Virus record (IMG/VR): IMGVR_UViG_3300046314_000558
Span: 1-64,000 of that record
DNA from: a virus
Strand: one strand, 5' to 3'
DNA length: 64,000 nucleotides
Position numbers and translations under genes: made by a program. The notes beneath the pieces are model-generated. The model was not told the origin of the DNA. It searched no databases and saw only the letters and a list, made by a program, of their open reading frames with translations. Below are positions 20,595-28,122 of the stretch, in pieces. Each line of letters opens with the position of its first letter. The stretch's first letter is position 1.

Positions 20595-20882
20595 ATGATT
20601 ATGGCAACCAAGTTTACATACACAGAAACCGAAGTGCAGGAGATTGTACAAAAGTATCAAAGTGGTGTGGAACTTGCGGTGCTTGCCACAGACTATGACA
20701 AAAGCGTAGCAAGTGTACGTATGAAGTTGGTAAAGCTGGGTGTATACCAAAAAGCAACCACCACTTCATCAAGTACCAAGTCTGAGACAGCGGCAAAGTC
20801 AGGCGAATTTCCCAAAACTAAGTCAGGCGTACTAGCCTACTATAAAAGCTGCGTTGATGCAGTTGGTTATAGTGAATTTTAA
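20595..20882 (+). CDS. A2/D3-like HTH protein (paralog 5)
   Basis: YTETE..KYQSG..KSVASVRMKLVKLGVY motif. Confidence 0.65.
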   Translation: MIMATKFTYTETEVQEIVQKYQSGVELAVLATDYDKSVASVRMKLVKLGVYQKATTTSSSTKSETAAKSGEFPKTKSGVLAYYKSCVDAVGYSEF

Positions 20883-21104
20883 TGAGTCCCGCTTATGCTT
20901 ACCCAATACATCCCTAGTATCGGGTAGCAAACTTCGAGCGAGGCGGATGCAAGCTCCGTCACTAAAATAAGCGTGTCGCCGTTGTAGAGACAATGCTTGG
21001 ATATTCTAAGATACAACAGGACTGTCGTCCTGGTTCAAGACTGTATGTGGACACTTTAGGGAGTGTCTCCATATATTAACATATTTTATAGTGTGTTAAT
21101 ATAT

Positions 21105-21270
21105 GGATCGGTAGCTTAACATGGTTAAAGCACAAAGCCGGCATACCTCCCCTTCACTTAAACGCTCTCCTCTGCCGCAAGCACGAAGCAAACAGTGGCC
21201 TGAATTCGAATACATGGTTTCGGGAAGGTATAATTTTAGCAAGCAGGTTCGAGTCCTGCCCGATCCACCA
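21105..21270 (+). ncRNA. tRNA-ended stable RNA with about 110-nt insert replacing the anticodon arm
   Basis: Acceptor GGATCGG/CCGATCC-A-CCA; D-arm; T-arm GCAGG-TTCGAGT-CCTGC. Confidence 0.75.
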
Positions 21271-21410
21271 TAATTTAACACATTAGTGCGAACAATGGCT
21301 CCTATTGCAGCCTAAGTAGTTTAGTGTGTTAAATTATGGGTTTAAAATTTTACACTTGTGGTAAAATTGCTTTTTTGATATAATACATACTCTTTGAAAG
21401 AAACACAACC

Positions 21411-21551
21411 ATGCGAGTTTTTACCAAAATAGATGACAAACTAGCTGTGTGGCAGATTGAAGGTAGTGGCTATGCCGATGCCATTAAGCTGGTTCGCGAT
21501 GAACTTGGTGTTGGTCACAAAGCAGTTATCTTGGCCCTTGTAAAATATTGA
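21411..21551 (+). CDS. Hypothetical 46-aa protein
   Basis: Hand-translated ORF downstream of a promoter. Confidence 0.5.
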   Translation: MRVFTKIDDKLAVWQIEGSGYADAIKLVRDELGVGHKAVILALVKY

Positions 21552-21827
21552 CTTGATCTTACAGTTATTTTGCTGTATAATTAACACTTATTCAGAGATA
21601 GTTCCGACACTAACATAGGACTTCCTGATAGACCAGAACAATGCAAAATTGTGTTAGCCAATTAGTGGAACGCTGTTAGCGCAGTGGGTACATAGGGTAA
21701 AGCATGGCACTGGTTGGAACCTCAGATCAGCAGCTCTGAGCTATCAAAAAGCTACTAATTTTGGATCTTGCTTCCACCGACAGATCATGATATCGGGGAG
21801 ATTTCGCACTATTCTAAAAAGTGTTAT

Positions 21828-21906
21828 CCGAGTGTGGGAAAGTCTGGTTTAATCCGCCTGCTTTGGGAGCAGGAAATCGAAGGTTCGAATCCTTCCACTC
21901 GGACCA
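21828..21906 (+). tRNA. tRNA-Pro(UGG)
   Basis: Cloverleaf; CCA. Confidence 0.92.
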
Positions 21907-22105
21907 CCGTGACCATATTGTTGTAACTTTTGCTAGATTCCGGTTCAGTCTCGGAGCTTTATAGATGGAAGTGGTTGTACTTTCTAGATAAGTGCAGCCT
22001 ATAGTCTGAGCTTAGTATATAGCTAGAAGTAATTAATCTTTGTAAAACTAAGCCGATGCCTTAGCGGGCATGGTAGTAAACAGAAGTTACAACAATATGA
22101 ATTAT

Positions 22106-22574: not shown

Positions 22575-22666
22575 GGCTCCATAGTTTAATGGTAGAACAG
22601 CGGATTTATATCCCGTATGCAACAGATAATTGGTTAGTCTGGGTTCGAATCCCGGTGGAGCTACCA
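22575..22666 (+). tRNA. tRNA-Ile(UAU) with long variable arm
   Basis: Anticodon loop TT-TAT-AT; about 22-nt variable region; CCA. Confidence 0.75.
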
Positions 22667-24966: not shown

Positions 24967-25596
24967 ATGCAGACATTAAAAGAAGCAATGCTGGAAGCGT
25001 TCCAGTATTTAGAAAATACTTATAACCCTAAATGGACTTCTGGTAAAGGTTCAAAAGAAAAACTTATAGACGCTTTCTCACAAAACGAGTTACCAAAGCA
25101 CAAATTTTTAGGGTTTGCTGGCTCAGACGGATTACGTCATGCTTTTGGTAGGGCTTTAACAGGCCATAATAAACCCAAAAGCACTAAGTGGGAAATATGG
25201 TTACTTAGAAACATAAACAAGTTTCAGTGCACTAAGTGCAACTTAGTGCATGCTTATAATCATAAATATGATACTAATGTTAATCTATGTAAAGACTGTA
25301 ACAGTATAAAGTGCTCCGATACTAGAGACTCTAAAAGACAATATGTATATGATGTACTGAGTTCAAGCTCTGGTTGTGTAGACTGTGGCGAAAAAGACCC
25401 AATTGTATTAGAATTTGACCATAGAGATCCAAGTACAAAATCCTCTAACATAGGCGATAGTTACGGTAAGTCAATAGAGTACCTAAAAGAAGAAATATTA
25501 AAATGTGATATAGTTTGTGCTAACTGTCACAGAAAACGAACAGCAAAAATGTTTAACTACTATAAGTACGTAAAACAGCTATCAAACCTGCCTTAG
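24967..25596 (+). CDS. HNH homing endonuclease
   Basis: CVDCGEKDPIVLEFDHRD...CANCHRKRT; AT-rich insert within the tRNA cluster. Confidence 0.85.
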   Translation: MQTLKEAMLEAFQYLENTYNPKWTSGKGSKEKLIDAFSQNELPKHKFLGFAGSDGLRHAFGRALTGHNKPKSTKWEIWLLRNINKFQCTKCNLVHAYNHKYDTNVNLCKDCNSIKCSDTRDSKRQYVYDVLSSSSGCVDCGEKDPIVLEFDHRDPSTKSSNIGDSYGKSIEYLKEEILKCDIVCANCHRKRTAKMFNYYKYVKQLSNLP

Positions 25597-26858: not shown

Positions 26859-26932
26859 GCCCTTGTAGTATATTGGTATTACAGTTGCCTTGTAAGCATC
26901 AAAAGAAGGTTCGATTCCTTACTGGGGCACCA
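26859..26932 (+). tRNA. tRNA-Thr(UGU)
   Basis: Cloverleaf; CCA. Confidence 0.9.
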
Positions 26933-27020
26933 TATTTTAGCACTTTAGAAGCCCAACACCAGTGCACTGGTACGCGAAGTGTGGTTACGACGCTTGTCCG
27001 TTAGAGTGCTAAAATATGGT

Positions 27021-27419
27021 TGTATGAAGCAGACCCAAAAGAGTTCGACACGCGGGGGCAGTGCCCGCCAGGTCCACCATTAGGAGATTTAATGAATTTA
27101 TTGTGCGGATACCATGCAAAGTCAACAGAGACTTGTCAGTGGGTAATAGAAAACTACGATCGTCCAACTGATAATATCACGGTTAGAGATTGGGTAGCTG
27201 CGTGCAAAGAATACTTAAAGTCTGTTAATGATGGGCCTGACACAGGATCGACCGGGCTAAGAGTAGCAAAGTAGACAACTCGGCAATGTGAAAGCCGTAG
27301 GATTGGGGATTCCCGGTCGTAGCAACAAAACAAAAATAAACGCAAACGATACACAGTTCGCATTAGCAGCCTAAACGCCGCTTAGGGTTATGCCAGTTCC
27401 TCGTAACAGAATACTGGCA
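27021..27419 (+). ncRNA. ssrA: Circularly permuted two-piece tmRNA
   Basis: Acceptor piece ends CAGGTCC-A-CCA at 27079; coding piece starts GGGCCTG at 27233 (G3:U70); tag ANDTQFALAA-stop at 27342-27374. Confidence 0.9.
27092..27274 (+). CDS. 60-aa ORF in the tmRNA intervening segment
   Basis: AGGAGA SD immediately after the tmRNA CCA; ATG at 27092. Confidence 0.5.
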   Translation: MNLLCGYHAKSTETCQWVIENYDRPTDNITVRDWVAACKEYLKSVNDGPDTGSTGLRVAK

Positions 27420-27522: not shown

Positions 27523-28122
27523 ATGCGCTCTAACCTTCTCGACCCTAAATTGTTTCAATCTGACAAATTTACTAACAGCTTTTCAAAGCCAGTTGCACAA
27601 GTTCATGAGTTTTATCTAACCGGCGCTATTGAAGATGCCGAGAACTACATTGAGTGGTTTGACACAATTCGCAACGCTTCAGCTGTAGATACCATTCGTA
27701 TTTACATTAACAGCCCTGGTGGTGACCTATTTACCACACTACAATTCTTGCGTGTAATGGCCGAAAGCGAAGCCAACATTGTTACCAGTGTTGAAGGTGC
27801 TTGCATGAGTGCAGCAACCATGATCTTCTTGCACGGTCATCAGCAAGAAGTTACACCACACAGCTTATTTATGTTTCACGACTATTCGTCAGGAACATTT
27901 GGCAAGGGTGGTGAGCAGTACGATCAGATTCAGTTTGAACGTGGTTGGTCGCGCAAGTTCATGAGTGAAGTATACGCAGACTTTTTAACCCCTGCTGAAA
28001 TCGAAAGCATGATGCACAACAAAGACATTTGGATGGGGTCGGAAGAAGTTGTAGAACGCTTAACTGCACTGCAAGCCAAGCGCGAAGCTGAAGTAGCAGC
28101 CCAAGAAGACGCACAAGAATAA
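27523..28122 (+). CDS. ClpP-like protease subunit
   Basis: IYINSPGG, ACMSAA (catalytic Ser), FMFH and DIWM motifs. Confidence 0.88.
   Translation: MRSNLLDPKLFQSDKFTNSFSKPVAQVHEFYLTGAIEDAENYIEWFDTIRNASAVDTIRIYINSPGGDLFTTLQFLRVMAESEANIVTSVEGACMSAATMIFLHGHQQEVTPHSLFMFHDYSSGTFGKGGEQYDQIQFERGWSRKFMSEVYADFLTPAEIESMMHNKDIWMGSEEVVERLTALQAKREAEVAAQEDAQE

Follow-up and report, generated by a model that had tools for sequence, protein, structure and literature searches.

What kind of RNA is encoded by a phage gene that has the outline of a transfer RNA (tRNA) and carries almost a hundred extra nucleotides (nt) in its anticodon loop? The question is raised by positions 21105–21270 of the IMG/VR virus record IMGVR_UViG_3300046314_000558. 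We analysed positions 1–64,000 of this record, called the window below, which is the first 64 kb of a 99.9-kb record (99,859 bases) with an estimated completeness of 94%. The answer has two parts of different strength. The element is very probably a genuine, conserved, non-decoding RNA built on a tRNA scaffold. The whole statement, in which copies of this RNA also associate with each other through two palindromic sites, has a probability of roughly one half as judged from the comparison of related sequences. The tRNA frame consists of the following parts.

21105–21270, plus strand: the tRNA-shaped RNA gene, 166 nt (read from the sequence, coordinates exact).

21105–21111, plus strand: 5′ strand of the acceptor stem, forming 7 base pairs (bp) with 21260–21266 (sequence and Rfam tRNA alignment).

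21114–21131, plus strand: D-arm with a 4-bp stem and a 10-nt loop that contains GG (Rfam tRNA alignment).

21133–21137, plus strand: 5′ strand CAAAG of the anticodon stem, weak and A/U-rich, with its partner at 21234–21238 (Rfam alignment).

21234–21242, plus strand: 3′ strand UUUUA of the anticodon stem, followed by a 4-nt variable loop (Rfam and family alignments).

21243–21259, plus strand: T-arm with a 5-bp stem and the loop UUCGAGU (Rfam tRNA alignment).

21260–21270, plus strand: 3′ strand of the acceptor stem (21260–21266), then the discriminator A and the encoded CCA (21267–21270) (sequence).

The Rfam tRNA model RF00005 matches 21105–21267 with 37.9 bits (gathering score 29; E 2e-6 in a 601-nt search), and its alignment places 97 nt in the anticodon loop. 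An earlier sequence-only reading had described an acceptor stem with ACCA, a normal D-arm and a canonical T-arm within 166 nt, and these hold exactly. The same reading took the anticodon arm to be replaced by a domain of about 110 nt. The loop is indeed replaced, but a weak A/U-rich anticodon stem is retained and the insert measures about 97 nt. In the window copy, U8 and A9 lie between the acceptor stem and the D-arm. Compared with a canonical decoding tRNA, the arms, the tertiary nucleotides and the 3′ CCA are present, and a 7-nt anticodon loop with a constant anticodon is absent. No Rfam family besides tRNA matches meaningfully in 20850–21450 at E values up to 10, and a scan of the whole window with Rfam 15 at gathering scores returns tRNAs and transfer-messenger RNA (tmRNA) only. 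With default settings, ARAGORN makes no call on 21105–21270. When introns are allowed, it reports “tRNA-Cys(aca), intron 71”, an arbitrary call. We also considered the alternative fold that ARAGORN offers (AAGCC/GGUUU, a class II tRNA with a 71-nt intron), which fails in the relatives when the alignment is read by eye. Other intron calls of this program across the loci are two adjoining tRNAs wrongly fused.

Since the element, folded as a single sequence, shows no exceptional stability (z = −0.85), the support for its structure was drawn from relatives. We used a UvdE homologue as the anchor in viral contigs and kept the best 80 of 265 matching stretches as loci. BLAST found the element in 21 of the 80 loci, and a covariance model (R1) run over the window and the 80 loci gave full matches of 134.6–170 bits in the window and 22 loci. 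The best ordinary tRNA in this search, a tRNA-Met, reached 57.7 bits. A degenerate pattern search added 21 stretches in viral contigs and 21 in metagenome contigs. Together, the 63 instances comprise 32 distinct sequences of 164–186 nt, which score 128–170 bits with R1; records close to the genome of the window may have been out of reach of these searches. These 32 distinct homologues and the score gap over ordinary tRNAs indicate that the family is real and beyond chance. It is known solely from contigs of uncultured T5-like phages and from metagenomes. The degenerate pattern had 0 matches in one genome each of 185,579 prokaryote species, and this search thus gives no clue to a host or prophage. 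Searches of 50,697 phage records with megablast and blastn gave tRNA or T-arm matches of at most 30 nt and no relative, and an exact search of viral contigs with 30 nt of the insert gave 0 matches.

Within the 32 sequences, the tRNA frame is kept at the level of its pairs. All 7 acceptor pairs are 100% paired, with changes on both sides at 4 of the 7. The 4 D-stem pairs and the 5 T-stem pairs are likewise 100% paired, each stem with 2 pairs changed on both sides, which makes 8 of 16 pairs for the three helices. The GG of the D-loop, the UUC of the T-loop, the discriminator A and the CCA are invariant (the last two in 32/32). The anticodon stem is less regular: it has 4 pairs in the Rfam tRNA alignment, one of them non-standard, and some members show A-U to U-A swaps at tRNA positions 28–42 and 31–39 (alignment read by eye).

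The insert of about 97 nt opens with a helix, P-b, and leads into a three-way junction with a long arm (P-c) and a short hairpin (P-e).

21143–21152, plus strand: 5′ strand of helix P-b, AUACCU-C-CCC, pairing with 21222–21231 (comparative table).

21155–21197, plus strand: helix P-c and the long apical arm, here of subtype A of three (pair counts and subtype consensus folds).

21198–21218, plus strand: hairpin P-e, with a 3–4-bp stem and a 15-nt loop whose flanks UGA ... AAUA.A are invariant (RNAalifold).

21222–21231, plus strand: 3′ strand of helix P-b, GGG-A-AGGUAU (comparative table and pair counts).

The closing part AUACCU/AGGUAU, which had been noticed from the letters alone, is the outer portion of P-b (21143–21148 with 21226–21231), and CCC/GGG extends it across one mismatch. 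P-b has 9–10 positions paired in most members with many different sequences, and its outer 3 pairs have all changed on both sides. The 4 bp of P-c are 95.3% paired and 4/4 have changed on both sides. P-e is 99% paired, and its middle pair is CG in 18 and GC in 14 members. Above P-c, the apical arm falls into three subtypes that cannot be aligned with each other: A (n = 11, including the window), B (n = 13) and C (n = 8). An apical loop of 5–7 nt with GCAA was seen by eye in 32/32 sequences; in the window copy, GCAA is located at 21176–21180.

To count pairs we used a model-fitted alignment, A3, with 26 pairs (acceptor, D, T, outer P-b, P-c and P-e) and 6 notional pairs of the palindromes described below. 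Standard pairs are formed in 99.3% of the 1024 cells, compared with 84.7% in shuffles and 25.7–50.1% when the partners were slid, and 20 of the 32 pairs are altered on both sides, compared with about 10.4 in shuffles. A3 was fitted to part of the counted structure, which biases these values in its favour; the palindromes and P-c are outside the model. G-U pairs occur on the strand of the element (acceptor pair 6–67 is GU in 17/32, and GU is found in P-e in 23/32), which points to a structure at the RNA rather than the DNA level. On this comparative evidence, the insert is a conserved three-way junction backed by covariation. The possibility that the insert is unconserved, which had been named as a refutation of the scaffold idea, is thereby answered, since it is conserved and covaries in 32 sequences.

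The proposal that the insert displays pyrimidine tracts resembling an anti-Shine-Dalgarno sequence did not survive. The tracts exist in the window copy and are no feature of the family. The first, ACCUCCCC, forms the 5′ strand of P-b, where it is paired and varies freely in step with the opposite strand; the second sits within the P-c and apical arm region at 21155–21197. CCUCC occurs in 4/32 members and CUCCU in 9/32, all of subtype A. Hence, the tracts are either paired or confined to one subtype, and the idea fails.

The most informative feature, unseen in the earlier reading, is a pair of covarying palindromes.

21137–21142, plus strand: palindrome 1, GCCGGC, in the 5′-side bulge between the anticodon stem and P-b, a proposed intermolecular site (A3 columns 34–39).

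21205–21210, plus strand: palindrome 2, UUCGAA, in the centre of the P-e loop, a proposed second intermolecular site (A3 columns 129–134).

Both are perfectly self-complementary in 32/32 sequences. Palindrome 1 stands where the anticodon loop would begin and occurs in five variants (GCCGGC, UCCGGA, GUCGAC, GCUAGC and GUGCAC), all of them perfect. Its three pairs are UA 17/GC 15, CG 29/UA 3 and CG 30/GC 1/UA 1, with neither a wobble nor a mismatch in 96 cells, and each pair has changed on both sides. In palindrome 2, two pairs are invariant and the central one varies (CG 28/GC 4), which gives UUCGAA in 28 sequences and UUGCAA in the remaining 4. On a tree built from the element without the palindrome columns, at least 6, 2 and 2 changes are needed for the pairs of palindrome 1 and 1 for palindrome 2. 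As the body haplotypes and the arm subtypes look recombined, we consider a lower bound of 4 double changes to be safe for palindrome 1.

Because its two halves adjoin, a six-base palindrome is unable to fold back on itself, and its preservation as a self-complementary word therefore points to contacts between two molecules of the RNA. An exposed word of this kind, kept by compensatory change as expected of a self-associating RNA, is present here. The predicted energy of the self-duplex is −7.5 to −11.7 kcal/mol for palindrome 1 and −4.1 to −6.1 kcal/mol for palindrome 2. The predicted mean probability of being unpaired is 0.58 and 0.62, respectively, compared with 0.44 for the average position. 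Across the genome, 1349 palindromic hexamers are found where 1681 are expected from base composition (GCCGGC 5 vs 8.7, TTCGAA 10 vs 31). This deficit is compatible with selection to keep the two sites, yet it is no evidence for such selection.

One locus, L034, holds a distant positional homologue of 188 nt (L034:5023-5210). Its body and insert are different, and it is preceded by the same upstream spacer module. Its anticodon stem of 6 bp is immediately followed by a 6-nt palindrome, and further palindromes of 6 nt overlap one another in a hairpin loop closed by CCC/GGG. When its relatives were sought in the collections, only the sequence itself was matched. The recurrence of the plan in this singleton supports the palindrome interpretation.

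Two other readings of these words were tried and rejected. The UUCGAA of the P-e loop might act as a T-loop, or as a partner of tRNA T-loops, but the UUGCAA variant breaks both ideas. A hammerhead-like reading of CUGA...GAA has the wrong core and no Rfam ribozyme match.

We propose that the tRNA frame would provide tRNA-type ends and the L-shaped elbow, and that the ends are presumably made and protected by the host’s tRNA-processing enzymes. At least two copies of the RNA would then pair with each other through both palindrome sites, and such kissing-type contacts could give a symmetric dimer or a larger assembly with the tRNA-like ends facing outwards. With low confidence, the role might be to bind or titrate a tRNA-binding factor of the host or phage; equally uncertain is the alternative that the RNA might form an assembly like those recently found in phages. 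A more elaborate version, to which we give only tentative credit, is an RNA-only symmetric assembly (dimer, closed ring or cage) held by the two self-complementary contacts and possibly the GCAA loop. By showing several acceptor ends and elbows, it could serve as a multivalent “tRNA decoy” that traps or organises tRNA-binding enzymes or defence nucleases during infection.

For expression, contigs of four freshwater metatranscriptome runs were aligned to 20600–22000. Run X20 contains a 162-nt record whose central 140 nt equal 21114–21253 without mismatch or gap, with adapters on both sides and a depth of 3.6, and which represents one unspliced complementary DNA (cDNA) fragment. Run X22 contains a 235-nt record of a relative that covers 21097–21226 and extends into the relative’s own flanks. 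No joint across the insert is found in the contigs of these runs. Positions 21258–21821 are without cover in the four runs, and we put no weight on this gap.

Several points weigh against the proposal. The family is small and limited to one phage lineage. The anticodon stem is weak, and its register varies among members, so the stem was left out of the formal pair count. Since six-base palindromes are common by chance, it is their maintenance and nothing else that carries the argument for self-association, and the apparent recombination of body and arm may have inflated the 6 tree changes. Part of the covariation of the outer pair of palindrome 1 can be explained otherwise because tRNA position 31 can pair with 39. 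Palindrome 1 is placed in a bulge and not in a hairpin loop, which is less usual for a kissing contact; palindrome 2 has changed just once and forms a weak duplex. The fragment from the RNA library could be contaminating DNA at its depth of 3.6, and it gives neither the ends nor the abundance of the RNA. Finally, the partner of the palindromes could be a dimeric protein or another RNA.

This last alternative is the one that survives best, although we hold it to be rather unlikely. The element would be the same tRNA-scaffolded RNA, but as a monomer whose palindromes bind a symmetric (dimeric) protein or another RNA with the same words. Fold and conservation are explained equally well. The position of palindrome 1 in a bulge and the invariant flanks UGA and AAUA.A of the P-e loop would suit recognition by a protein, and an open reading frame (ORF) of 46 amino acids (aa), preceded by a strong promoter of its own, lies downstream of the element in 13 of the 23 loci that contain it and is found in 1 of the 57 other loci. 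This co-occurrence largely tracks relatedness, and in distant loci a match to so short a query can easily escape detection. A protein site would moreover be expected to keep its sequence, whereas five different palindromes in the same place fit base pairing better. As for another RNA, no second site that covaries with palindrome 1 was seen in the neighbouring modules, which were read by eye and not searched systematically.

The self-associating, non-decoding RNA also has to be set against an ordinary tRNA gene with an intron, perhaps the tRNA-Asn that this genome lacks. In its favour are the completeness of the tRNA frame, the intron-bearing tRNA that ARAGORN reports when introns are allowed, and a T-arm identical over 26/26 bases to that of a tRNA-Asn from a Curtobacterium phage. 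The tRNA genes of the 99.9-kb genome cover 18 amino acids with two Met-type genes, and tRNA-Asn and tRNA-Ser(UGA) are missing. Across the loci of the 80 relatives, tRNA-Asn genes are found at 11 places, but they are unrelated in sequence to the element body. No group I intron or ribozyme family matches 20850–21450 at E values up to 10, in agreement with the earlier statement that the insert is too short for a group I intron. To our knowledge, its 97 nt are far below the size of self-splicing introns.

If the P-b hairpin is removed, the positions of the anticodon differ among members (GGC, GGA, AGC and others), and the anticodon called by ARAGORN falls in a non-conserved stretch. The constant discriminator A in 32/32 speaks against the intron as well, as does, weakly, the single unspliced cDNA from the contigs of the four runs. 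Among 460 predicted tRNAs of 81 sources (the window and the 80 loci), no insert-free twin or replacement copy was found, the best candidate agreeing at 42/61 positions. An intron is therefore very improbable and already largely refuted. We regard the element as a non-decoder because the would-be anticodon varies with the palindrome, no insert-free twin exists among these tRNAs, and the cDNA is unspliced. The core idea of the earlier reading, a tRNA scaffold that displays a functional RNA domain, gains support from the conserved and covarying body and insert, the failure to restore a constant anticodon, and the unspliced fragment.

No better are the chances of a dead tRNA gene that was split in the anticodon loop by a small mobile DNA element, with the palindromes as DNA recognition sites. 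The insertion point is the anticodon loop, the palindromes are strictly Watson–Crick as DNA sites would be, the insert arm occurs as three swapped subtypes, and HNH endonuclease genes are present in the tRNA cluster (24967–25596). The tRNA shell is nevertheless under selection at the RNA level: G-U pairs are restricted to this strand, and substitutions in the three tRNA stems (acceptor, D and T) are compensated. Such compensation would not persist in a dead gene. No copy with an empty site or a replacement occurs in the 81 sources. In every locus examined, the element stands at one and the same place, flanked by tRNA-Arg(TCT) and tRNA-Pro(TGG), and no further copies were seen. The nearest “endonuclease” is the repair enzyme UvdE.

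Hardly credible, and close to refuted, is a miniature tmRNA-like RNA: its plan of a tRNA-like domain with a replaced anticodon region, a read of 9 codons, uninterrupted in 10/11 members of subtype A, that stops at the invariant UGA in the P-e loop, and a weak nearby match of the Rfam permuted-tmRNA model (11.8 bits, E 4.1, gathering score 47) are outweighed by a pair 3–70 that is GC in 19, AU in 13 and G-U in 0/32, by a normal D-stem, by the silence of ARAGORN and the Rfam tmRNA models, by the absence of the read in 21/32 members (subtypes B and C) and a stop at codon 5 in one subtype A member, and by the full two-piece tmRNA that the phage already has at 27018–27374 (97.8 bits). The earlier remark that the insert has no tag ORF thus holds family-wide, with nothing comparable to the subtype A read in the other 21 members.

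The element, for which a non-decoding, self-associating RNA remains our preferred interpretation, resembles several known systems in part. As in tmRNA (SsrA), an acceptor and T-arm domain with CCA is kept and the anticodon region is replaced by a large structured domain. Unlike tmRNA, the element has no G3-U70 pair, pseudoknot ring or family-wide tag frame; it has a normal D-stem and a retained anticodon stem, is half the size or less, and gives no match to the tmRNA models. Chen and co-workers are said to have described, in 2014, the bacterial Y-RNA-like YrlA as a tRNA-like module joined to a second functional stem. In YrlA, the two RNA ends belong to the non-tRNA, Ro-binding stem, and the acceptor is closed by a loop. 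The element shares the mimicry of acceptor, D and T arms and an anticodon stem that leads into a different functional helix, but its ends are the acceptor ends with ACCA. The suggestion that Y-RNA-like models be included in the Rfam search brought no such match at E values up to 10. Ponchon and Dardel reportedly engineered, in 2007, a “tRNA scaffold” for the expression of recombinant RNA. There too, a structured RNA is grafted in place of the anticodon loop, for the cell to process and stabilise as a tRNA; the laboratory construct differs from the element, which occurs naturally as a conserved gene of phages and has a covarying insert of its own.

For the palindromes, a parallel is the dimerisation initiation site (DIS) of human immunodeficiency virus 1 (HIV-1), a kissing-loop dimerisation site. 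The element has in common with it a six-base self-complementary loop word with purine-rich flanks, which differs between lineages and is always palindromic. In contrast to sites of this type, the element has two sites per molecule, one of them in a bulge, and belongs to a tRNA frame in a DNA phage; the dimer is a prediction. Among phage RNAs, GOLLD and ROOL often lie near tRNA genes. The element is much smaller than either, gives no match to their models, and is itself tRNA-shaped and not merely adjacent to tRNAs. The stable RNAs of the T4 and T5 tRNA regions, of which the earlier reading was reminded, are small non-tRNA RNAs in the tRNA cluster of a virulent phage that are processed with the tRNAs. 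Natural RNA-only multimers formed by kissing loops and palindromic pairing, including RNAs under 200 nt, are described in a review that covers palindromic pairing in RNA homodimers (PMC12990946) and in studies of RNA-only assemblies of the phage-associated ROOL and GOLLD (10.1101/2024.12.08.627333) and of short RNAs such as manA (10.64898/2026.07.01.735769). Like ROOL, GOLLD and manA, the element would be an ornate, phage-encoded and protein-free candidate, and its intermolecular RNA contacts are proposed.

The genome around the element is that of a T5-like phage, with replication genes for a PolA-type polymerase, a DnaB-like helicase, an SbcC-like nuclease subunit and ribonucleotide reductase. 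Freshwater metagenome is the label of the DNA runs in which this part of the genome occurs. Between 19.8 and 31 kb, the window holds 25 tRNA genes and the two-piece tmRNA. The element lies between tRNA-Arg(TCT) and tRNA-Pro(TGG), about 1.7 kb downstream of the gene for the UvdE-type repair endonuclease, and is enclosed by two spacer hairpins.

21068–21107, plus strand: upstream spacer hairpin with a perfect 14-bp stem, whose 3′ arm extends over the GGA at the start of the RNA (inverted repeat).

21268–21339, plus strand: downstream spacer hairpin with an 18-nt stem that starts at the CCA and a 36-nt loop with a small conserved hairpin (inverted repeat).

The motif TGTTAANNTATGG of the upstream hairpin occurs in 10 copies in the window, compared with 2.0 expected. 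The downstream module is found upstream or downstream of the element in relatives, and its inner hairpin shows a U-A to C-G swap. The same “CCA-hairpin-GG” design also separates tRNA-Thr from the tmRNA (26930–27019), as well as other RNA genes in relatives. These spacer hairpins may be processing sites or recombination modules. In the window and in the flanks of loci L002, L010, L017 and L034, spacer stems are formed between the CCA with which one RNA ends and the GG with which the following RNA begins, and several spacer hairpins share a conserved loop with a small covarying inner hairpin, GGCY...RGCC.

Some neighbouring features deserve a description of their own. Upstream of the element, about 190 nt (20883–21071) are free of ORFs and contain two hairpins; CCA forms the end of the second one (21049–21071). 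From a relative, a metatranscriptome contig of 943 nt with a depth of 20 spans 20600–21040, where it stops at an adapter. Downstream, the 46-aa ORF occupies 21411–21551 behind a near-consensus promoter seen by eye (TTTACA, 17 nt, TATAAT; about 21348–21376), which is absent from the matches of the promoter scan. The ORF has no Pfam match, and its count of 13/23 loci against 1/57 includes the distant L034 form. The tag of the two-piece (permuted) tmRNA at 27018–27374 ends in ALAA as read by eye, and a gene for a ClpP-like protease follows at 27523–28122 (phrog_1827, E 1.9e-61). Hence, the phage carries both a tagging RNA and a protease.

The clusters also contain tRNAs of 92–103 nt with the anticodon UAU and a long conserved extra arm (window 22575–22666, L053:7620-7720, L024:11913-12012 and L046:7153-7255). 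In some relatives, tRNAs of this UAU type have an 8-nt anticodon loop, which ARAGORN reads as the four-base anticodon “tacc”. Other conserved modules of about 80–90 nt, enclosed by hairpins, stand directly after the element in L019 (8820–8910), L017, L002, L009 and L016, and a different module follows it in L008, L109 and L112. This suggests that the tRNA clusters hold a set of interchangeable small RNA cassettes.

We found no description of such a phage RNA in Rfam 15 or in the literature, including passages of PMC10690425. Nor was the motif found in the searched part of the supplements of that virus-RNA catalogue (6 files, with 3 others unsearched), from which we do not claim its absence. 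As far as we found, the element is thus a tRNA-like non-coding RNA of a kind undescribed in phages, in which a whole tRNA naturally carries a second folded domain.

The mimicry of tRNA is a recurring strategy, as in tmRNA, Y-RNA-like RNAs and viral tRNA-like structures, and the element is a natural counterpart of what engineers have built as a “tRNA scaffold”. Because its palindromes are maintained, self-association of this otherwise unexplained RNA becomes a claim that can be tested directly, just as structures of RNA-only assemblies from phages are being determined and their purpose has yet to be explained. The short length of 166 nt and the clear designs for compensatory mutants make it an easy target at the bench. 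For the phages themselves, the finding means that the tRNA clusters of uncultured T5-like phages hold more than tRNAs.

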